Source of the DNA: Candidatus Bathyarchaeia archaeon
Lineage (GTDB): Archaea > Thermoproteota > Bathyarchaeia > Bathyarchaeales > Bathycorpusculaceae
Reading direction: 5' to 3'
Assembly: GCA_038727135.1 (NCBI GenBank)
Contig: JAVYWL010000002.1
Span: 7,186 to 71,185 of the forward strand
Length of the DNA: 64,000 nt
The translations under genes and the position numbers were made by a program. The notes below the pieces were generated by a model. It worked only from the letters and a program-made list of their open reading frames with translations. It was not told the DNA's origin and did not search any database. How positions within the stretch are numbered: position 1 is the first letter of the stretch; every line of letters starts with the position of its first letter. This document shows positions 4,651 through 22,693 of the stretch, piece by piece.

Positions 4651-5151
4651 CTATTTTGAGACTGATAACTTGTTTGGAAAAACTGTTTTTAATATACTTT
4701 CATAATCCTCAATTTTTGCATCTTTCTTTCCTGGAATGCCTCGAACATACCATTCATATTTCTTTTCGTCTGTGATTAAACGAATTTTTGCTCCCAACCC
4801 ATGCTTCTTTAATTCCACACTTCTAACTTCTGAATAGTAAATTGCAAAATTGTTCTGGTTGGCTTTCAAAAGTTCTTCTGCGGAAAATCCGACAAACTCT
4901 TGTTTCGCCGTTTTGGGCCATCTTACCAGAACACCTACTGGACTGATTAGATAACTGCCACTACCAATTTTCGCTACAATCACCCTATTTGTTGTAAAAT
5001 ACAAATCCTCGAAAAGGGTCCTCCATCTAAGGTAACTTGTTCTAAATGAATTGATAACTCCCAGAATCACTTCATCAGCGCTCATTTCCCACCACTTTTC
5101 ATGAAATTTAGCTCGGTAAGGCTTTAAGCTTTTAGAGGCTTTTGCCCACAA
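4651..5151 (-). CDS. Hypothetical protein
   Basis: 166-aa ORF in an AT-rich segment. No motif I can name. Confidence 0.45.
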   Translation of the reverse strand: MWAKASKSLKPYRAKFHEKWWEMSADEVILGVINSFRTSYLRWRTLFEDLYFTTNRVIVAKIGSGSYLISPVGVLVRWPKTAKQEFVGFSAEELLKANQNNFAIYYSEVRSVELKKHGLGAKIRLITDEKKYEWYVRGIPGKKDAKIEDYESILKTVFPNKLSVSK

Positions 5152-5213
5152 CTGTTAAAACAGCACAAGTTCTTTAAGACGTAAATGGTATAAATAGAAA
5201 GCGAGGAATCCGC

Positions 5214-5906
5214 ATGGCAATTGAAAAAACGCCTGGAAAAAATGAGATTCTTTTTGTTTGGTTTAACCGCTATGCCGGAGTAACCATAAAAACCCCCTCG
5301 AAAACCTTTGTAGTGGACCCTGTTGATGTGAAGCCCAAAGTTTTCCAGAAGGTTGACGCCATCCTCATAAGCCACGAACATTACGACCACCTAGACCCGT
5401 CACTTGTCTTAGAAGTCCATAAGCTGACCGACTGCAAGGTCATAGCAGACCCAACATCTGCAAGGAGGCTTCGCAATGCCATACCGGCTGAAAAGTTGCA
5501 CGAGGTTCAACCGGGCTCTGAGGTCAAATTTGGCGAAGTCTCTGTGAAAGCCGAAAAATGTAATCATCCACCAGCAGCCACACCTATATCCTTCATAATA
5601 ACAAGCGAGGACGGCGTAAAAGTCTTCCATACAGCGGACAGCCTGCCCTTCCCAGAAATGGCAAGCATAGGTGAGAGAGAAAAATTCGACTTGGTCTTCT
5701 GCACCGTCGGCATTGCGCCTGGAACTTCGCCGGAAACAGGCGTTGAGATAGCCAGACTTACAAAGCCTAAGGTGGCTGTTCCTTATCATACAGGCTCTTC
5801 CGCAGACCTTAAAAGGTTCGGCGAACTTTTGAAGAGGGAAATGCCAAAGGTCACATGCCTAATCCCAGAGGTTGGAAAGATTTACCAAGTTTCAAAAAAG
5901 GTGTAG
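5214..5906 (+). CDS. Metallo-beta-lactamase-fold hydrolase
   Basis: HxHxDH motif (ISHEHYDHLD) and a later H/D ligand pattern. 230 aa. Confidence 0.75.
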   Translation: MAIEKTPGKNEILFVWFNRYAGVTIKTPSKTFVVDPVDVKPKVFQKVDAILISHEHYDHLDPSLVLEVHKLTDCKVIADPTSARRLRNAIPAEKLHEVQPGSEVKFGEVSVKAEKCNHPPAATPISFIITSEDGVKVFHTADSLPFPEMASIGEREKFDLVFCTVGIAPGTSPETGVEIARLTKPKVAVPYHTGSSADLKRFGELLKREMPKVTCLIPEVGKIYQVSKKV

Positions 5907-13718: not shown

Positions 13719-13849
13719 CTAGTCATGCTCCTTTAAGAGTTCTTGAGCGAAGTTGAAGGCCTCTTTCTAAATAAGAATTTCCTATGAATTCTTTAAACAT
13801 GTTTAAACTTGATTTTGGCGGATGTTTTGTTGAACTGTTGAACGAGTAT

Positions 13850-13870
13850 GTGTAGCTCTGTTCTACGCAC
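13850..13870. promoter_or_regulatory. Palindromic operator-like motif, copy 1 (GTGTAGCTCTGTTCTACGCAC), just upstream of an AT-rich TATA-like box
   Basis: About 22/25 positions match copy 2 at 15138..15158. TATA-like catatttaaaca at 13878-13889. Pilin ATG at 13923. Confidence 0.5.
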
Positions 13871-13922
13871 AAACCATCATATTTAAACAACGTTGAATTT
13901 TTGGCACGGAGCGAAAAAGAAA

Positions 13923-14480
13923 ATGAAGATGTTAAGGAATAAAAGGGCATTGAGCACAGTAGTAACCACATTGATTATTCTAGTGGTTTCGGTGCTTTTG
14001 GCAACTGTTGTAACGTTCTACGCCATAAACGTAACAACCACGAGGGTGCAAGAAGAGTCGTTATTCCTAACGAAGCCGCACGTTTGGTGTCCTGCCTCTT
14101 CTGGGAACGCGCAAGCAGCATTAGTTATAATTAACACTGGTGGGCGAGATGTGGTTATAGACAAGATAACAGTCAGAGGACAAGAATCTGATTGGTCAAA
14201 TGTTTACTATAACATCACGTCTGGCGGGATATCTGCCGACCTACCCTACAACTCAACACTCAAAGACAACGGCAAAATCAACATAGGCGGCAAAGACTAC
14301 ACGTTTGTAAAAGGTACTTCTGGCAAAGATATCACGTTGAAATCTGGCATGACCTTGATAATCTACATCGACCAGCCAGACAGCATATCATTGAATGACA
14401 TAGGCACTACTGTAGGCATTACAGTGTTCACATCAAACGCCCAATACTACAAAGAGACAAATGTCCAAGCTGTCGAGTAG
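13923..14480 (+). CDS. Archaeal type IV pilin (class III signal peptide), paralog 1
   Basis: MKMLRNKRALSTVVTTLIILVVSVLLATVV is a class III signal plus hydrophobic helix. The TTG at 13893 would lie within the promoter. Confidence 0.8.
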   Translation: MKMLRNKRALSTVVTTLIILVVSVLLATVVTFYAINVTTTRVQEESLFLTKPHVWCPASSGNAQAALVIINTGGRDVVIDKITVRGQESDWSNVYYNITSGGISADLPYNSTLKDNGKINIGGKDYTFVKGTSGKDITLKSGMTLIIYIDQPDSISLNDIGTTVGITVFTSNAQYYKETNVQAVE

Positions 14481-14492
14481 GGAGGCAGTGAC

Positions 14493-15062
14493 ATGAGGCT
14501 TTTAAAGGGTAAGAAAGCGTTAAGCACCGTTGTGACAACGCTGATTATTCTAGTGGTTTCAGTGCTTCTAGCCACCGTAGTTACGTTTTACGCCATAAAC
14601 GTGACAACAACGCGTGTACAAGAAGAATCATTGCATCTAACAAAATTCCATGTGTGGTATAATCCAACAGGGGAATGGTCAGAGGCAGCCTTCGTAATAA
14701 TCAACACTGGCGGAAAAGATGTTGTCATAGACAAGATAACAGTTAGAGGACAAGAGTGCCCATGGAATAACGTCTATTACTGGAAGACGTCAGGTGCCAT
14801 AACATCGGATTTGAAACCAACGTCAACAAAGCCCAGCGGCAATTCTGTCAATATAGTTGTAGATGGTCAACCAAGATCTTTCAGCAACGCAACCGTTGCC
14901 CTCAATGGAAATGATTTAACTTTGATGTCGGGTCAAACCGTTGTAATATACATCGTTAATCCAGACAGCATTTCCGTAAACGACATAGGCGTAACCGTAG
15001 GCTTGACGGTGTTCACATCAAACGCCCAATACTACAAAGAGGCAAACGTTGAATCAACTTAA
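14493..15062 (+). CDS. Archaeal type IV pilin (class III signal peptide), paralog 2
   Basis: MRLLKGKKALSTVVTTLIILVV... The 40-aa N-terminal block is identical to paralog 1. The C-terminus VFTSNAQYYKE is shared. GGAGG RBS. Confidence 0.8.
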   Translation: MRLLKGKKALSTVVTTLIILVVSVLLATVVTFYAINVTTTRVQEESLHLTKFHVWYNPTGEWSEAAFVIINTGGKDVVIDKITVRGQECPWNNVYYWKTSGAITSDLKPTSTKPSGNSVNIVVDGQPRSFSNATVALNGNDLTLMSGQTVVIYIVNPDSISVNDIGVTVGLTVFTSNAQYYKEANVEST

Positions 15063-15065
15063 AAC

Positions 15066-15090
15066 CCTCCCTTTTTCTTCCCTTTTTATT
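15066..15090 (+). terminator. Oligo-T tracts downstream of the pilin pair
   Basis: ccctccctttttcttccctttttatt follows the stop directly. Archaeal termination typically uses T-runs. Confidence 0.4.
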
Positions 15091-15137
15091 TAAGGCAAAC
15101 ACTTTCTTATCGGGTATTAGCAATATGAATTTTCTAT

Positions 15138-15158
15138 GTGTAGTTTTGTTCTACACAC
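15138..15158. promoter_or_regulatory. Palindromic operator-like motif, copy 2 (GTGTAGTTTTGTTCTACACAC)
   Basis: GTGTAG-N7-CTACAC inverted repeat followed by cttaatatagcc (TATA-like), upstream of the assembly-gene operon starting at 15231. Confidence 0.5.
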
Positions 15159-15230
15159 ATTATCTTATCTTAATATAGCCTTCAAAGGTTTTCCATGCTG
15201 GCGGTTTGCAAGAGAGGAGACTGTTAAAGG

Positions 15231-16058
15231 TTGCGTGTGAAAGGCTTTGGAAGGCTTGCGTGTTCGAGGAAGGCTTTGGCTATTCCAGTCACCTACCTTA
15301 TACTTTTTGCCTCGCTTATCGTCATAATATCCGCCACCTATGGCTTTGCAGTAACCCGCATAAGCGCAAAAAGCGTCCAGCTAAGGGCTTCGGTTGCCAA
15401 ACAGAACATGCAAACTTTGGATGAGGCTGTGCGTTCTGTGGCTTGGTCTGCTGGAAGCTCAAAAACCATTTACATGGAGAATTGTGGAGGAGCCTTTCAA
15501 ATGCAGCCGAAAGCCAAAAGTCTCGTTATAAATTTGACGGATGGGCGGACGTTTTCCTATGTGGTTTTTAATGGTTCTGTTGGAAAAGCCCTATACATGC
15601 TTGATGGCGTGGCTGAAAGCCAAAAAGGCACATATGTTAGTGGTGACGGCCGAACAATAATAGATCAGGGCGCCTTCACGGTTACGCAGCTTTACTTTGA
15701 AAGAGGCGAGAGTGCACAACAACTTGTCCTATGCTACCGACCAATGGCAACAGCCTTGGCGGCCGGCACAAGCAACGGAAAACCGCTCAACATTATACGT
15801 GTTTACATAATAAGCTTAGCCTCTTCCCAGACGCTTTCGCTTTATGGAAGCTTCCACTTAAAGGTTTCAGCGTTGAACACCACTTCAACGGTTAAGCTTT
15901 TAATGTTCAACAGTTCGGTCTCCTCTCTTGCTTTGGAAGCCCTTTCAGAAGGCACTAAAACGACTGTTTGGCTTCCGATAGAAAGCACTAGCGAAGGCGC
16001 TGTTGTAAGCCTCGAAGTTGTCGTCTGCCACATACAAGTTAGGAGGGTTAACGCCTAA
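15231..16058 (+). CDS. Pilin-like protein (class III signal-like N-terminus)
   Basis: SRKALAIPVTYLILFASLIVIISA is a basic residue, small residue and hydrophobic helix. TTG/GTG start after GAGAGGAG. Confidence 0.55.
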   Translation: MRVKGFGRLACSRKALAIPVTYLILFASLIVIISATYGFAVTRISAKSVQLRASVAKQNMQTLDEAVRSVAWSAGSSKTIYMENCGGAFQMQPKAKSLVINLTDGRTFSYVVFNGSVGKALYMLDGVAESQKGTYVSGDGRTIIDQGAFTVTQLYFERGESAQQLVLCYRPMATALAAGTSNGKPLNIIRVYIISLASSQTLSLYGSFHLKVSALNTTSTVKLLMFNSSVSSLALEALSEGTKTTVWLPIESTSEGAVVSLEVVVCHIQVRRVNA

Positions 16059-16525
16059 TGCCAGCCATAACCCCCAGCTACTTGTACACATTCTTCGCCA
16101 TAATCGCCGTGAGCAGTATCCTCCTAGTCTCCTTTATGGGCTATGCCAACGCCATACGCCTCTCATCGGAGATGGGTAAACTAAAGGATTTGATGGATTT
16201 GGTGGCAGCCAAAGCCACAGGACTCATAAGCCTTGCAAAGGCGACAAACACAACAGCCGAAGCCTTTATTCAAGCGCCAGCAGCCATAGGCGATAGGCAG
16301 TACTGGCTCATGCTCGGAAATGACTCTTCAATGATTTGGGTTGAAGGCGGATTTGGAAACACACCAATAGCCGAGGCGGGAGTACGCGTTTATCTTCCAA
16401 GCACGGCTTTTGCTCATGGCTATTATGTTAGTGGTTATGGGGCAATCCTCCTAAAATGCTCTATGAATCAGGAAGCTGGAATCCCCGAGGTTCAGCTTTC
16501 TAGCTCAAGCCAAAATGGAGGGTGA
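16058..16525 (+). CDS. Pilus accessory protein with N-terminal TM helix
   Basis: 155 aa with one N-terminal hydrophobic helix, translationally coupled to its neighbours. Confidence 0.45.
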   Translation: MPAITPSYLYTFFAIIAVSSILLVSFMGYANAIRLSSEMGKLKDLMDLVAAKATGLISLAKATNTTAEAFIQAPAAIGDRQYWLMLGNDSSMIWVEGGFGNTPIAEAGVRVYLPSTAFAHGYYVSGYGAILLKCSMNQEAGIPEVQLSSSSQNGG

Positions 16526-18131
16526 AAACGGTTTGAAGTTTGCATTAAAACTTAAGAAGGGCGGGGCGGAGGCGGAATTTAAGGATTTAATGAAGGAAGA
16601 AGCCGAGCTAACCGGTTTTATGGAGGTTCAGAAGTGGAGTGTTCCTGAAGGCTATATTGAAGTGGAATACTATCCCTTAAAGCCTCCCTTCTCCTACGCA
16701 GCCATAATCCAGAATGAAGAAACGCTGGAATACCTATACGTTTTGGACGAGTTGCCCCTAACAAAGGAGGAGAGGGAGGGCTACCATAGGCTTAGAAACA
16801 TTTTGGAATTTGAACTTCAAGCCCCAGAGGGCGAGGAAACCCTAGCAGAGTCTTTTAGGCGGCAAATGCCCGCAATCCTTGCAAAACACCGCAAAGTGCT
16901 TGAGGGAATATCTCCTATAGGCTTGAGGAAAATCCTCTACTACCTTGAAAGGGATGTTGTTGGATATGGCAAAATAGACCCGCTGATGTATGACGATTAT
17001 GTTGAGGATATTGGATGCAGCGGCGTCAACAAACCCATATACCTTTGGCATAGGAAATATGAAAACATTAAAACAAACATCGTTTTCAGAGACGAGCAGG
17101 AACTCGAAGACTTTGTCATGCGGATGGTTCACAAGTCTGGAAAACACGTTAGCATAGCCTTCCCAATAGTGGACGTGACACTGCCGGAAAAACACCGCTT
17201 AGCCGTCTCCTTTGGCAGGGAAACAACGCCCTACGGAACAGCCTTTACCATTCGAAAGTTCCGCAAAGACCCCTTCACAATAATCGACCTTATTGAAAAC
17301 GAGACCATAAATGAGAGCATAGCCGCCTACCTATGGCTTTTGATGGAGAACAAAATGTCAGTGATGATTATTGGGGCTACGGGTGCTGGAAAAACAACAG
17401 CCCTAAACGCCATTGCATGCCTCATAAAACCCAGTTACAAAATAATCTCTGTTGAAGAAGTTGCAGAAATAAACTTGCCCCATGAGAACTGGACTTCGAC
17501 GATTGCGAGGTCTGGCTTTGGAGCTGAAAGCGAGGGCGAAATAACTCTCTACGACTTGATTAAGTCGGCAGTGCGCCACCGTCCAGACCTAATAATTGTA
17601 GGCGAAGTCCGCGGAGAAGAAGCCTACGTGCTTTTCCAAGCCTTAGCGACTGGACATGGCGGCTTGTGTACGCTTCATGCTGAGGATGTTGATACCGCCA
17701 TGAAGAGGCTTACCCAGCCACCCATGAACATCCCAACATCAATAATTCCGCTCATGAACTGTGTAATCACGGTTAAGCACGTCAGAACGCCAGTCTTCCT
17801 AGAATCTGGGAGGAGGCTTTCAAGCCGGAAGTTCATCAGCGTCACGGAAATAAAGGACTATAATAGTTATCAGGAGGTTTTCAGCTGGAATCCGTCCACA
17901 GACACTTTTAAGGAGAATTTGGCTGAAAGCTACTTGCTCAAGAAGATGGCTTCAAGCCTAGACATTCCAGTTGAAAGGCTTATTGACGAGTTAGAATATC
18001 GCAAGCGGGTTCTAGTCCACATGGTGGAGCACGGCATCCGCGACTACAGAAGCGTAAACAAAGTCCTAAGCAAATACTACAACAACCCAGAGCTTTTCCA
18101 AAGAGAATTCCTCGGGAAGGGCGAGTGGTAA
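16515..18131 (+). CDS. Type II/IV secretion family ATPase (FlaI/PilB/VirB11-like pilus assembly ATPase)
   Basis: Walker A GATGAGKTT, Walker B/Asp box DLIIVGEVRGEEA, His box TGHGGLCTLHAED. Confidence 0.9.
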   Translation: MEGENGLKFALKLKKGGAEAEFKDLMKEEAELTGFMEVQKWSVPEGYIEVEYYPLKPPFSYAAIIQNEETLEYLYVLDELPLTKEEREGYHRLRNILEFELQAPEGEETLAESFRRQMPAILAKHRKVLEGISPIGLRKILYYLERDVVGYGKIDPLMYDDYVEDIGCSGVNKPIYLWHRKYENIKTNIVFRDEQELEDFVMRMVHKSGKHVSIAFPIVDVTLPEKHRLAVSFGRETTPYGTAFTIRKFRKDPFTIIDLIENETINESIAAYLWLLMENKMSVMIIGATGAGKTTALNAIACLIKPSYKIISVEEVAEINLPHENWTSTIARSGFGAESEGEITLYDLIKSAVRHRPDLIIVGEVRGEEAYVLFQALATGHGGLCTLHAEDVDTAMKRLTQPPMNIPTSIIPLMNCVITVKHVRTPVFLESGRRLSSRKFISVTEIKDYNSYQEVFSWNPSTDTFKENLAESYLLKKMASSLDIPVERLIDELEYRKRVLVHMVEHGIRDYRSVNKVLSKYYNNPELFQREFLGKGEW

Positions 18132-18134
18132 AAG

Positions 18135-19634
18135 TTGCAGGTTCAAATCGGAAAGCCTAAAATTTTTGGGCGGATGCTAAGTCGCTTCACAGAAGAGGAC
18201 ACAAGCGAAATAAACCGGGAACTCCCCTTTGCCGCCTTGCTCTTCACAATATTGGCTGCCAGCGAGGTAACCCTATACGAGAGTTGGAAAAAACTCTGCG
18301 CCATAGAGCAACTGCCCCAATTCAGGAAAGAAGCAAGGGAAGTCGTTAGACAAGTGGAGGTTTTGGGATACGACCCCTTAACGGTCATGCAGAAGCGGGC
18401 TGAAAAAACGAAGTCTAAAAACTACCGTGAATTTCTGTTAGGCTATGTTTCAGCCGTCAGAAGCGGCGGAAACATCGTAAACTTTCTTAAAAGCAAGCTT
18501 CGCTCAATATTTGATGTTCAAAGCGCCGCCGCCATCCGCTCAATCGAAAGGCTTGGCACCCTTGTGGAAGCCTACGCCGTCATGCTGATCGTAACCCTAT
18601 GCTCCTACATACTCTTCATAGTTTTCTCGACAACATCAATATTCGAGCCTACAAGGATTGCTGGAACACCAAGCCTGTCCACCGATGTTGTCTGCCTGCT
18701 AATATTTCTCTTAACGCCGTTGATTTCGCTTGTCTTTATGATAATCGCTCACTTAGAAAGGAAAAGTAACCTTGTTGGGCTTATGGCTCCATACAAAGTT
18801 GCAGCCATCGCCATAGTCGCCGCCAGCGCCTTCCTAGCATCCACCTTCATGCTACCCCCGCTTCAATTTCTCAGAAACCCACAAATTCTGCCCCTTGTCT
18901 TGACTGTCTGCCTACTAACGGTTTCGATTCCTCCAGCAATAATCTACATGGAAATTGCCAGAATAAACAATGCTGCTGAAAATGCCATGCCAAGCTTCCT
19001 AAGAGACGTCACAGAAGCCAGAAAAACTGGACTTTCGCCAGAGAAAAGCATAGTTCACGCCACAAAACGCCCGGGCTATGGAAAATTCTCCGAAGTTCTA
19101 AGGCTTGTAAGAAGCCAAATAGAGTGGGGTGTACCCCTCAGGAAAATATTTGCGAGTATAAAGAGGAAGCTTCAGACGTGGCCTGTTTTAGTGAACTTTC
19201 TCATCCTTGTCGAAACTATAAAGATGGGCGGAGGCTCAAGTGTAGCCCTAGAAATTTTGACGGAGTACAGCGAAAAGCAGAAGGATGTGGAAATCAACAA
19301 GAAGTCCTTGCTTAGGCCTTATGTTATTTTGGCTTTCATATGGAGTGTTCTCATAGCCTTGACAACGACAATGGTTGCTTTAACGGTTTACACTTTGACG
19401 AGGCTTTCGCTTCCCGGTGCTACGCCGGTATCCTTTATTGTTATGCAGGAGCAGATGAACCTTTTCTCTTTGGGTATATTGGTGCAGTGTTGGCTTTCAG
19501 GCTTTTTTGTGGGCAAGGTTAGTGAGGGCACTTTCGCTGCTGGTTTTAAGTATTCAGCCATGCTTGTATTGACGGCACACATTTCGCTGGCGCTTTCGCA
19601 GAGCTTGTTGGGTGGAATGTTCGGGCTTGTTTAA
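18135..19634 (+). CDS. FlaJ/TadC-like polytopic membrane platform protein
   Basis: 499 aa, multi-TM with two cytoplasmic helical domains, immediately after the ATPase. Confidence 0.75.
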   Translation: MQVQIGKPKIFGRMLSRFTEEDTSEINRELPFAALLFTILAASEVTLYESWKKLCAIEQLPQFRKEAREVVRQVEVLGYDPLTVMQKRAEKTKSKNYREFLLGYVSAVRSGGNIVNFLKSKLRSIFDVQSAAAIRSIERLGTLVEAYAVMLIVTLCSYILFIVFSTTSIFEPTRIAGTPSLSTDVVCLLIFLLTPLISLVFMIIAHLERKSNLVGLMAPYKVAAIAIVAASAFLASTFMLPPLQFLRNPQILPLVLTVCLLTVSIPPAIIYMEIARINNAAENAMPSFLRDVTEARKTGLSPEKSIVHATKRPGYGKFSEVLRLVRSQIEWGVPLRKIFASIKRKLQTWPVLVNFLILVETIKMGGGSSVALEILTEYSEKQKDVEINKKSLLRPYVILAFIWSVLIALTTTMVALTVYTLTRLSLPGATPVSFIVMQEQMNLFSLGILVQCWLSGFFVGKVSEGTFAAGFKYSAMLVLTAHISLALSQSLLGGMFGLV

Positions 19635-19649
19635 CAAAGCCTCCAAAAG

Positions 19650-20726
19650 GTGAAAGCCGTGCCGGCAATATCCATCGACACCTTTTTCGCGTGTTCCCTA
19701 ATGGTTTTGCTTGTGCTATCGGCTATGGCTGCCACCGCCAGCCTCCTTTACCAGCCGATAAGCAATTCTTTTGGAAATGAAGCCTTCACGAGATATGGGG
19801 AAATCGCCAAATACATGTTATTGAACACTGGAGAGCCAGCCGACTGGGGAAAGAACAGTCAAACGTTTCCGGAAGAGTTTGGCTTGGCAGATGTTGAGGC
19901 GGCGAATCCTTACACGCTTGACATAGATAAGGTTTCTAGGCTGAATGGCGAAAACCTCCATGCTTTAAGTTATGCCCAAATATACACAAGCCTAAAAATT
20001 CCAGACATAGCCTTCCGAATCGAGATAAAACCGCTATTTGAAACTGTTATAAATCTCACAGCGACTTATGAGGACGAAAATGAAACAACTTACGAGTTTG
20101 AAATTGAAACCGTCAGAAGTGGCGTAAATGTCCCAGCAGAATTAAGGCTCTATACAATTGCTGAAAGCCTTCTGCAAAACTTGGGCGCTTACAGCTCTGA
20201 TGGTGAAATCCGCTTAAATGTGACAATCCCAAACAGCGTCAATGGACCAGCACTGCTTGTTGTTTTGGCAAAATCCAAGTACAACGCTAAAATTGTTTCC
20301 TTCGCTGTTTACGCCTTTGCCCACACCCCCCAAAATCCAATGTCAAAGGGCAGTTTTTTGAGGCTTTCCCCGTTAAACCACACACTAACTGTTGTGCCCA
20401 ATAATCCAGACATAGTCTTGTTAGACGTTTATGCCTTAACCTTCAACAACTCCTCAACCTTAGAAAAAACGACAAGTCAAAATCAAGCTGTCACATTCAA
20501 CATTCCAAAATTTTTGGACGCAAGCCCAATAATGCTAGTTGCCACCGGAAGGAATTCCACGCAATTTTTTGTGGAGTGGACTGTTTACCCGCAGATACCG
20601 GTGGCGATTGGCATAAGCCCAACAGACTCCATAAGCCTAGCAGATGTTTACGCTTACACATACTTGGTCACTATAAACTCCGCATTGTATAAGTGTACGG
20701 TTTGGCTTGGAGGACCAAAACAGTGA
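19650..20726 (+). CDS. Pilus-associated protein with N-terminal TM helix
   Basis: 358 aa with N-terminal hydrophobic helix (FFACSLMVLLVLSAMAA) and several N-x-S/T sequons. GTG start. Confidence 0.45.
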   Translation: MKAVPAISIDTFFACSLMVLLVLSAMAATASLLYQPISNSFGNEAFTRYGEIAKYMLLNTGEPADWGKNSQTFPEEFGLADVEAANPYTLDIDKVSRLNGENLHALSYAQIYTSLKIPDIAFRIEIKPLFETVINLTATYEDENETTYEFEIETVRSGVNVPAELRLYTIAESLLQNLGAYSSDGEIRLNVTIPNSVNGPALLVVLAKSKYNAKIVSFAVYAFAHTPQNPMSKGSFLRLSPLNHTLTVVPNNPDIVLLDVYALTFNNSSTLEKTTSQNQAVTFNIPKFLDASPIMLVATGRNSTQFFVEWTVYPQIPVAIGISPTDSISLADVYAYTYLVTINSALYKCTVWLGGPKQ

Positions 20727-21145
20727 AAAACCAGAAGAAAGGGCAAATCAGGATAATTGAGGCTTTTCTAGCCGTCTTAATAGTCTTCTCCTCATTGGCT
20801 ATTTCTGCAAGCCTAACAACAGAGCATAAAACCGCAGAATCCAGAGACTTGACATCTCTTGGAATGCAAGCCCTAATAAAACTTGATTCTGATGGAAGCT
20901 TAGACGCCTACATAGATTCCGGAGACTGGTTTGGACTGCGGGAAGCGTTAAGCCTTCTCCTTCCAGAGAGCATGTCCTTCAACTTAACCGTCTACGACGA
21001 GGAAATGCGGCAAATAAACACCGAAGCCATAACAAATGGAAACATCAACGGCCAAGAAGTAGCCTCAATAAAATATGTTTGCGTAAGCCGAAACCCCAAC
21101 TTCCGATATTATGTGATTTACTTGCAGTTGGCTGTGGTTAAATGA
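20723..21145 (+). CDS. Minor pilin-like protein
   Basis: VKNQKKGQIRIIEAFLAVLIVFSSLAI is prepilin-like. The GTG start overlaps the upstream stop (GTGA). Confidence 0.55.
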   Translation: MKNQKKGQIRIIEAFLAVLIVFSSLAISASLTTEHKTAESRDLTSLGMQALIKLDSDGSLDAYIDSGDWFGLREALSLLLPESMSFNLTVYDEEMRQINTEAITNGNINGQEVASIKYVCVSRNPNFRYYVIYLQLAVVK

Positions 21146-21918
21146 AAAGGCTTGGAAGACTTGTGAAAGCAAAAAGTTCCGGTCAGCTTCTGATAGTGGC
21201 GGCCCTAGCAATAGCCATACTCATATCCACAACAACAGCTTACGTCTACGAGGTCAGCAGACAAAAGCCATCCGCCTCTCAAATCTTTCCATTGGCTGAT
21301 TTCGTTTTAGCTATAAAGCAAGGCTCAAGAAACGCCATAATAAGCGCACTAGCCAACATCACAAACGGGGGAGAAAAAGCAGTTTTGGCTTCAAACCTTA
21401 ATGGTTTATCCCAAGCCTACAGAAGCCTAAACGCTTATGGGCTTTATTACCTATCCTACACAGTTTTAAATGATTCGCGTTATGTGGACGGCTTTCGGCT
21501 TTCATGGGAAGAACCAAGCGGGTTGGGCATATCAAGCGCCTACGCAAACTTCACACTGAAATTTTATGGCCTAACGGAGAAAATCGCGCTAGGCTACGCC
21601 ATAAACATAACAACAATGATAAAGCTGGAAGGCTATTACACGTTAAATGATTCTCAAAAAGTCGTAAACTTAACATGCCAAGTCTTCAATGAGGAGAAGC
21701 CAGCACTGGCCGAAAACATAACGGTCTATTATGAGCTGGACGGAATTTGGGTTCCAGCCAACTCATCAAATAACCTCTCCATAATAGATTATGGTAATGG
21801 AACCTATGCCATATCTTTCACGGTTAGCACGGACTCCAGCGATGTACGGGTCTTAGTGCGCGTCTATGATTCGCGAGGCATATTTGTTAAGGCAAACTCG
21901 ACATGTAACCAAGTCTAA
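21142..21918 (+). CDS. Minor pilin-like protein
   Basis: KAKSSGQLLIVAALAIAILIS is a prepilin-like N-terminus. ATGA start/stop overlap with the upstream gene. Confidence 0.5.
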   Translation: MKRLGRLVKAKSSGQLLIVAALAIAILISTTTAYVYEVSRQKPSASQIFPLADFVLAIKQGSRNAIISALANITNGGEKAVLASNLNGLSQAYRSLNAYGLYYLSYTVLNDSRYVDGFRLSWEEPSGLGISSAYANFTLKFYGLTEKIALGYAINITTMIKLEGYYTLNDSQKVVNLTCQVFNEEKPALAENITVYYELDGIWVPANSSNNLSIIDYGNGTYAISFTVSTDSSDVRVLVRVYDSRGIFVKANSTCNQV

Positions 21919-21952: not shown

Positions 21953-22693
21953 ATGGATTATGCCACTTCTAAAGTGAAAAATGAACAGAAGGCTTGTGTT
22001 GAGATGAGCGAGGCAAAGGCTTGGCGTCATATTTTCACGCTTTTAAAGTTGGCGGAGCTTGGGGCCCACAGAAGAACGGCGAAAATTTCAACAGAATACC
22101 TTGCGCGGAAGCTTGGCGTTTCCCAGCAGTCTGCGTCCCGCCATCTAATAGAGCTCGAACATAAGGGTTGGATTAAGAGGACAATGACGCCGGAAGGATG
22201 TCTAATAAAAATGACGGAGTCTGGCTTAGCAGAGCTTAAGAGGCTTTACTCAGGCTTACGCTTTCTAATGGAAGCCACATATCCGCCGTCAATAACCCTT
22301 GAAGGCGTAGTCTTCACCGGATTAGGCGAAGGCGCCTACTATGTGACAAGAGACCCGTACAGAAGGCAGTTCATTGAAAAGCTAGGCTTTGACCCTTATC
22401 CTGGGACGTTGAACCTAAAACTTGTAACGGACTACGACGTTAAAACCCGCTCAGAGCTTGAGGCTTACCCAGCAATAGAGATTGAGGGGTTCAAAAACGA
22501 GAACCGCACCTTTGGACCGGTGAAGTGTTACCCGGCAATAATAGAGAACAAGGTGAAGGGCGCCCTTGTATCAGCCTTAAGAAGCCACTATGACGCGTCA
22601 GTTATGGAGCTTATAGCACCTATATGCCTAAGAAAGCATTTAGCCCTAAAAGACGGCCACAAGGTGAAGGTGGAAGTTTTAACCCTTCCATAA
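21953..22693 (+). CDS. wHTH regulator fused to CTP-dependent riboflavin kinase (RbkR-type)
   Basis: N-terminal HTH (LARKLGVSQQSASRHLIELEHKGWI) plus a C-terminal archaeal RibK domain (GLGEGAYY...PYPGTLNL). Confidence 0.8.
   Translation: MDYATSKVKNEQKACVEMSEAKAWRHIFTLLKLAELGAHRRTAKISTEYLARKLGVSQQSASRHLIELEHKGWIKRTMTPEGCLIKMTESGLAELKRLYSGLRFLMEATYPPSITLEGVVFTGLGEGAYYVTRDPYRRQFIEKLGFDPYPGTLNLKLVTDYDVKTRSELEAYPAIEIEGFKNENRTFGPVKCYPAIIENKVKGALVSALRSHYDASVMELIAPICLRKHLALKDGHKVKVEVLTLP

Follow-up and report, generated by a model that had tools for sequence, protein, structure and literature searches.

Organization of the pilus locus and its palindromic element

We describe here a type IV pilus locus and a palindromic element of 21 bp that occurs twice within it, in a 64-kb stretch of contig JAVYWL010000002.1 from a Candidatus Bathyarchaeia archaeon; the whole of this stretch is referred to as the window. 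The locus lies on the plus strand and begins with two paralogous pilin genes. Pilin 1 (13923-14480), an archaeal type IV pilin, carries a class III signal peptide and the N-terminus MKMLRNKRALSTVVTTLIILVVSVLLA and matches Pfam Pilin_N below the curated cut-off; pilin 2 (14493-15062), whose gene starts 13 nt after the end of pilin 1, also matches Pilin_N and has no palindrome of its own. A T-rich tract (15066-15092, plus strand) found 3' of the pilin 2 stop codon is a likely archaeal terminator, and similar tracts stand at the equivalent place in orthologous loci. It is followed by the pilus assembly operon (15231-21918, plus strand), in which Pfam matches and the sequences themselves indicate two pilin-like genes, a T2SSE ATPase (16515-18131), a T2SSF platform protein (18135-19634) and three minor-pilin-like genes; this operon is conserved in 68-80 of 80 related loci.

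An earlier inspection of the letters alone (the sequence-only reading) had placed two copies of a motif of about 25 nt, matching at some 22 of 25 positions and built on GTGTAG-N7-CTAC(G/A)C arms, before the pilin pair and before the assembly operon, respectively, each followed by an AT-rich TATA-like box and with T-runs separating the two units. All of this was confirmed: the sequences ATGTGTAGCTCTGTTCTACGCACA (site 1, 13848-13871) and ATGTGTAGTTTTGTTCTACACACA (site 2, 15136-15159) were found where they had been placed, with 21 of 24 bases identical, a figure that becomes 22 of 25 if the T before each is counted; the TATA-like boxes TCATATTTAAA and TCTTATCT/TTAATATA follow at 13877-13887 and 15163-15177; the T-runs, at 15072-15091, are those seen past the pilin 2 stop codon; and the genes downstream of the respective copies are, by Pfam, the two Pilin_N proteins and then the T2SSE/T2SSF operon. 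The pilin genes enclosed by the two sites number one or two in relatives.

The core of the element is a 21-bp inverted repeat, TGTGTAG-N7-CTACRCA, with 7-bp arms, and such dyad symmetry suits a dimeric DNA-binding protein. Site 1 (TGTGTAG-CTCTGTT-CTACGCA, 13849-13869, plus strand) lies upstream of the pilin pair within a conserved block at 13847-13871 (TA...CA), and site 2 (TGTGTAG-TTTTGTT-CTACACA, 15137-15157, plus strand) lies upstream of the assembly operon within the block 15135-15159. The inverted arms TGTGTAG and CTACACA, separated by a 7-nt spacer, are perfectly complementary in site 2 (7/7) and nearly so in site 1 (6/7). When the 23-mer pattern TGTGTAGNNNNGTTCTACRCACA was searched with up to three mismatches, these were the only two places matched in the 64 kb, with 0.01 expected from shuffles, and none of 100 shuffled windows contained two matches.

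Genomic specificity and phylogenetic footprint

The genome to which the window belongs (G000) comprises 1.55 Mb in 7 contigs and is 94.7% complete. A position weight matrix (PWM) was derived from 53 distinct sites of related loci, and its strong matches in G000 were three, each upstream of genes: site 1, with the highest score of the genome (42.7 bits), site 2 (38.6 bits), and a third site with one mismatch at C1:724940-724960 (23.6 bits). The weaker matches, the next scoring 19.6 and 16.5 bits, fall within coding regions, and those at C4:49294 and C4:60840 were discarded for this reason; no match above 12 bits was obtained in the reversed genome. Hence the whole-genome search, which the sequence-only reading had proposed as a check, returned three strong copies and no dispersed repeat.

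Orthologous loci were retrieved through the pilus ATPase; they come from several families of the order, with ATPase identities as low as about 66%. In 51 of them the sequence reaches 3 kb or more beyond the ATPase on its upstream side, and among these, allowing up to one mismatch, 42 keep two sites, seven have one and two have none, so that conservation in orthologues, another of the proposed checks, extends to both positions in most loci, the flanks upstream of the sites being unconserved. Measured from the ATPase start, the two sites lie about 1.36-1.5 kb and 2.0-2.7 kb upstream, and elsewhere in the 685 kb of orthologous loci only two further matches were found. The 21-mer of site 1 is identical and equally positioned in loci of the same genus, and is conserved across families. 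The reversed pattern, used as a control, gave no match at zero or one mismatch in 41 relatives, counted per genome; across 201 genomes of the order that are at least 85% complete, which also constitute the co-occurrence set used below, it gave 2 matches, and the exact motif was found in 50 genomes.

The alignments yielded the consensus block TA-TGTGTAG-nnnnGTT-CTACRCA-CAAAyyA-TCWTATYT, and the sequence 5' of the palindrome is unrelated between loci. Accordingly, the information content of the upstream flank (-60 to -4) is about 0.1-0.3 bits, and it reaches 1.8-2.0 bits at -1, +21 and +22, positions that were unused in site selection; the columns +21 to +34 from the motif start hold 0.6-1.9 bits, with the TATA-like block (+28 to +34) at 1.0-1.8 bits, and the values drop again beyond it. 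What is conserved in the arms is the sequence itself: among more than 100 distinct sites, compensatory pair changes were not seen. Relative to the promoter, 80 sites are oriented forward, 2 are reversed and 9 are ambiguous, a few lineages having the entire 21-mer inverted with its asymmetric spacer included. More distant genera retain the promoter-side ACRCACAAA and have a degenerate promoter-distal half-site. Taken together, the conservation, the genomic rarity and the sharp start of the footprint support the proposal of the sequence-only reading that both copies are a shared operator of one dimeric factor next to the BRE (the transcription factor B recognition element) and the TATA box.

A third promoter with the palindrome

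The third strong site, on another contig, precedes a gene for a cytoplasmic protein of 148 aa (C1:724361-724804, minus strand), whose family is also represented in L003 at 919-1365. In the 22 genomes where this gene was found, the palindrome is present 143-192 nt upstream in every case (22/22), followed by CACAAAAGGCAAAAAT. The constant distance of about 150 nt between palindrome and gene implies either that the leader is long or that the start codon was set wrongly. The distance from the 148-aa gene to the pilus ATPase is at most about 8 kb in G038 and G039, about 8.3 kb in G026 and about 15 kb in G040. In G032, a relative, the palindrome also stands before a second pilin pair.

The 148-aa protein had no sequence match in Pfam or the PDB. 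It has 386 homologues, of which the 120 listed are either named 'hypothetical protein' or nameless, the source names of those listed being Bathyarchaeia or none. Its AlphaFold2 model from a single sequence was poor, with a predicted local distance difference test score (pLDDT) of 55, and the model from a 58-sequence alignment (pLDDT 68.7) displays four strands and then helices. The best Foldseek matches of the protein in the PDB included SecB and the SecB-like Rv1957, mixed with actin-capping protein, all of them weak (E >= 0.03, template modelling score <= 0.43); a chaperone role may be considered only as a lead.

Natural deletions of the pilus genes

Two neighbours frame the locus. Beside site 1 lies a divergent operon encoding an energy-coupling factor (ECF) S-component, a GHMP (pantoate) kinase and a cytidylyltransferase (PPAT), and directly downstream of the assembly operon there is a gene (21953-22693, plus strand) for a protein that, by Pfam, combines an RbkR-type winged helix-turn-helix (wHTH) with a CTP-dependent riboflavin kinase, a neighbour that falls outside the regulon. 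Three genomes of the same genus as G000 (G011, G012 and G013) constitute natural deletion cases. In G011 (L184, G011:C5:29000-42000, junction at about 5057-5300), everything from the first pilin through the last minor pilin is gone, and the S-component operon and RbkR are intact and adjacent; the pilin promoter is kept, with its distal half-site decayed (TGTGCAA...CTACGCA). In G012 (L146, G012:C3, 5001-5200), an internal deletion has fused site 1 and 36 pilin codons to minor-pilin genes, and the genes m358 and m150 each match in two pieces, indicating frame breaks. These deletion variants therefore show that the motif belongs to the pilus genes and not to the neighbouring operons.

The same genomes point to genes elsewhere that share the fate of the pilus locus. 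The 148-aa gene is broken in G012 and G013, both of which lost pilus genes. A TrmB-like gene, described below, is reduced in G011 to a fragment with stop codons; in G013 both it, again as a remnant with stop codons, and the 148-aa gene are pseudogenes, and no TrmB-like gene was found in G012. The TrmB-like candidate appears to be without other essential targets.

A TrmB-like protein as candidate regulator

The sequence-only reading had seen no regulator gene inside the locus. This holds for the window, but RbkR is encoded directly downstream and the best candidate is located on another contig. That candidate, a TrmB-like gene, surfaced when all open reading frames (ORFs) of the 80 loci were clustered. 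In 13 loci it adjoins the pilus genes, on their upstream or their downstream side; in G000 it lies at C1:653573-654445, unlinked to the pilus locus. It encodes a soluble protein of 290 aa with an N-terminal winged helix (PF01978, 58.3 bits, cut-off 25.6) and a match to PF11495 (33.6 bits, cut-off 22.2) that covers only positions 3-130 of the 233 of the profile, and it matches TrmBL2 in the PDB over residues 45-287 (E 2e-6). Throughout the order the recognition helix, LHRTETYRILRDLEK, does not vary, which makes covariation between helix and motif uninformative.

Within the co-occurrence set, 96 genomes have both the pilus ATPase and the TrmB-like gene, 1 has only the ATPase, 17 have only the TrmB-like gene and 87 have neither. 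In 57 of those 96 genomes the TrmB-like gene is found 2.2-7.9 kb from the ATPase, in three arrangements, and the exact motif is accompanied by this gene in 49 of 50 genomes. The TrmB-like gene consequently co-occurs with the pilus genes and the motif, is syntenic with them and decays along with them. An additional one-mismatch palindrome (TGTATAG...CTACGCA) was observed in L097 (1379-1399) and in L103 (about 4.6 kb upstream of the ATPase); it is flanked by two small genes of unknown function and precedes the TrmB-like gene by about 700 nt.

Based on these findings, we consider it likely that the palindrome is the operator of a small pilus regulon of Bathyarchaeia, comprising three promoters in G000, with a dimer of the TrmB-like protein as the most likely binder and a probably activating effect. 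The binding itself, predicted from co-occurrence, synteny and domain content, is probable, at somewhat lower confidence than the operator and its regulon as a whole.

Several observations weigh against this interpretation. G009 (94% complete) and G083 have the pilus locus, and no TrmB-like gene was found in them; conversely, the 17 genomes with the TrmB-like gene only have no ATPase above the E-value threshold. The genomes counted are not phylogenetically independent, so the Fisher p-value of the co-occurrence overstates the association. In the large genus g30 the distal half-site is degenerate, yet the recognition helix is unchanged. The promoter of the trmB-like gene itself contains a tandem repeat, TGAATTCA-N5-TGAATTCA, and not the palindrome, and the protein might recognise this tandem instead. 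Finally, a site abutting the BRE could also block TFB and so repress, the promoter positions being deduced from sequence only.

Promoter architecture and proposed mechanism

At the conserved sites the palindrome leads into CAAAyyA and TCWTATYT at a fixed register, and the identities of BRE, TATA box and start site are read from the sequence. Judging from position, the pilin promoter has a putative BRE (CAAACCA) and the TATA-like box TCATATTTAAA at 13870-13887 (plus strand), and the assembly operon has a putative BRE/TATA of the form TTA TCTTATCT TAATATA at 15160-15177 (plus strand), where the spacing is reduced by 2 nt compared with most sites. With TCWTATYT taken as the TATA box, the palindrome would occupy about -60 to -40 from the transcription start and abut the BRE, and transcription would start near 13900-13906 and 15186-15192, just 5' of the GGAG motifs that precede the start codons. 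A dimer bound upstream of the BRE would most likely help TBP and TFB onto these non-consensus promoters, that is, activate them, and pilin supply, the assembly machinery and the 148-aa protein would be placed under one switch. Activation through TFB/TBP recruitment is favoured because the site would occupy the position used by archaeal activators such as EarA; provided that the TrmB-like protein binds, we lean towards activation rather than repression as its effect.

Alternative explanations

The most probable alternative retains both the site and the factor and reverses the effect: the protein, bound next to the BRE, would occlude TFB/TBP until a signal releases it. TrmB-family proteins act as repressors as well as activators, and the palindrome ends directly at the putative BRE, both of which agree with repression. 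The loss of the regulator along with the pilus genes fits an activator or a repressor and does not discriminate between them. However, the promoter boxes are non-consensus, and the site lies entirely upstream of the putative BRE/TATA, which is the usual place of archaeal activators, e.g., EarA (PMC13286277). We therefore regard repression as possible and rather doubtful.

Less probable is that the palindrome is a transcription factor site bound by a different regulator, the TrmB-like protein reading its own TGAATTCA tandem or acting elsewhere in the pathway. This would accommodate the trmB-like promoter, where the conserved tandem stands directly upstream of a good TATA box (GAAGTATAAAATA) and the palindrome is absent in every lineage examined, as well as the two pilus loci, in G009 and G083, whose genomes have no detectable TrmB-like gene. 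Nevertheless, binding to inverted repeats of this size is characteristic of the TrmB family, and no other regulator gene is syntenic with the locus; RbkR and a pair of PadR genes fail the co-occurrence comparison, as both are present in genomes without pilus genes, and no protein of the EarA family was found in G000. Taking these points together, we consider a different binder unlikely.

Other binders were also rejected individually. EarA was discarded since no match to PF07381 was found in the 94.7%-complete genome. A regulator internal to the operon was discarded since each of the three unknown ORFs at 19650-21918 encodes a hydrophobic, pilin-like segment at its N-terminus. The PadR pair, which is divergent and lies at G000 C2:179215-179265, was discarded as a specific regulator, given that its orthologues occur in many genomes without pilus genes and that in G000 it has a palindrome of its own, GATATGTC-N8-GACATATC, and only a degenerate copy of the pilus site. 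In G031 (L143 2446-2466), a copy of site 2 with 20 of 21 bases, TTTGTAGTTTTGTTCTACGCA, was observed 10 nt from a PadR start codon.

The tandem could mark a second regulon, or an upstream regulator could bind it as one step of a cascade. In G000, tandems of the form TTTTGAATTCA-N-ATTTTGAATTCA were observed at C1:653468-653491 (before the TrmB-like gene), C2:105709-105732 and C1:691292-691315; the C2 copy precedes a 77-aa ORF, and the degenerate C1:691292 copy precedes a 234-aa gene that adjoins GH57 and glycosyltransferase genes in a glycogen-related cluster. An extended version of the preferred interpretation would give the TrmB-like protein overall control of a self-contained pilus module (regulator, pilins, assembly operon and 148-aa protein) that has been lost repeatedly, with the tandem, which in this version is read by an upstream factor and also fronts the GH57/glycogen-synthase gene cluster, providing a two-step cascade and the 148-aa protein serving as a new cytoplasmic, chaperone-like partner of prepilins. 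We hold this combination to be speculative and improbable as a whole; if true, Bathyarchaeia would couple the expression of their pili to carbon status by way of a TrmB-type protein repurposed from sugar control.

Readings in which the palindrome is no protein operator at all are very improbable. An RNA hairpin, as terminator or processing signal, could form with a 7-bp stem and a 7-nt loop, and site 2 and the third site do lie downstream of co-directional genes; site 1, however, has no co-directional gene upstream, and the arms are kept as sequence over more than 100 distinct sites with no compensatory changes. A recombination site flanking a pilin cassette would account for the two window copies flanking the pilin genes as direct repeats and for a pilin copy number of 1 or 2, but not for the motif that stands alone before the 148-aa gene, where it flanks nothing. 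A small dispersed repeat is difficult to reconcile with three copies per genome, all upstream of genes, and none of these readings explains the fixed register to the TATA-like box.

It is very unlikely, and of all readings the least probable, that the palindrome is the operator of the neighbouring RbkR, linking flavin status to the S-component operon and the pilus genes, even though RbkR follows the operon directly in 46 of 80 loci, the intergenic region of site 1 is shared with the ECF S-component gene and RbkR proteins bind palindromes of 16-20 bp (PMC5397151): full-length RbkR of 86-93% identity is present in G011, G013, G017 and G018, where no motif was found at up to one mismatch; RbkR occurs in 40 of 41 relatives and the motif only where pilus genes are; the palindrome is decaying in G011 next to an intact RbkR and S-component operon; the third site and the extra pilin loci have no flavin connection; and the published RbkR motifs are different, namely TnnCA-N4-TGnnA, TTAC-N10-GTAA, AAACT-N2-AGTTT and TnAG-N6-CTnA (PMC5397151).

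Other features of the locus

A separate 18-bp palindrome, CTTTAAACATGTTTAAAC (13791-13808, no strand assigned), is located in the same intergenic region as site 1, nearer to the divergent S-component operon. Relatives retain it, one of them being G011, which has no pilus genes; it is separate from the pilus operator. The divergent S-component operon may have this palindrome as its operator, and a similar site with 2 mismatches was observed at G000 C3:76814.

In two genomes of one genus (G021:C1:520934-522550 and G200:C8:26011-27627), the reading frame around the pilus ATPase orthologue spans 689 aa and contains one in-frame TAA, which may reflect a fused upstream gene or a read-through artefact.

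Discussion

A close parallel of the predicted system is EarA, a winged-helix activator that binds just upstream of the archaellum (fla/arl) promoter, which has a weak BRE, in Methanococcus maripaludis and Pyrococcus furiosus (PMC13286277). The two systems would share the placement of the site as well as the regulon logic, with a regulator dedicated to a type IV filament operon; in the EarA system, a strengthened BRE bypasses the activator. The likeness, however, is in logic only, as no PF07381 protein was found in G000; moreover, the EarA site is described as short repeated boxes whereas the element described here is a 21-bp inverted repeat, the target is a pilus other than the archaellum, and the lineage is Bathyarchaeia and not Euryarchaeota.

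With regard to protein family, the candidate resembles TrmB, TrmBL1 and TrmBL2 of Thermococcales and Halobacteria in having PF01978 and part of PF11495, and is similar to TrmBL2 in length and sequence. The operators of this family are likewise inverted repeats, as exemplified by the Thermococcales glycolytic motif (TGM, TATCAC-N5-GTGATA), and in the case of TrmBL1 a site upstream of the BRE/TATA goes with activation. The differences are that the motif sequence is unrelated, the regulon consists of pilus genes and not of sugar metabolism, and the C-terminal match of the candidate is truncated, its sugar-binding subdomain being probably absent and its binding a prediction.

In Sulfolobus acidocaldarius, type IV pili and the archaellum are regulated by other archaeal wHTH proteins, Lrs14 (AbfR1) and ArnR/ArnR1. 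Lrs14-type regulators, which have a PF01978 helix-turn-helix and control pili in Sulfolobus, are small proteins never encoded in pilus loci (PMC4858521), unlike the candidate, with its 290 aa and its gene next to the pilus locus in more than half of the genomes that have both; ArnR, in turn, is membrane-anchored, whereas the candidate is soluble. The operators of archaeal riboflavin genes bound by RbkR are similar in being promoter-near palindromes with the RbkR gene next door (PMC5397151), and differ from the pilus element in co-occurrence, in the behaviour of the natural deletions and in motif sequence. What is new is thus the predicted operator, regulon and regulator in a class without experimental genetics, the EarA-type logic and the TrmB family being already known.

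To our knowledge, there is no experimental knowledge of how genes are regulated in Bathyarchaeia, an abundant class of uncultured archaea, and little is known in any archaeon about the control of type IV pili other than the archaellum. The present analysis offers a prediction that can be tested without cultivation, consisting of a defined 21-bp site, three target promoters and one named candidate regulator amenable to expression in E. coli. It describes a compact module that would be gained and lost as a unit, and it helps to annotate the 148-aa family, which lacks any known domain.

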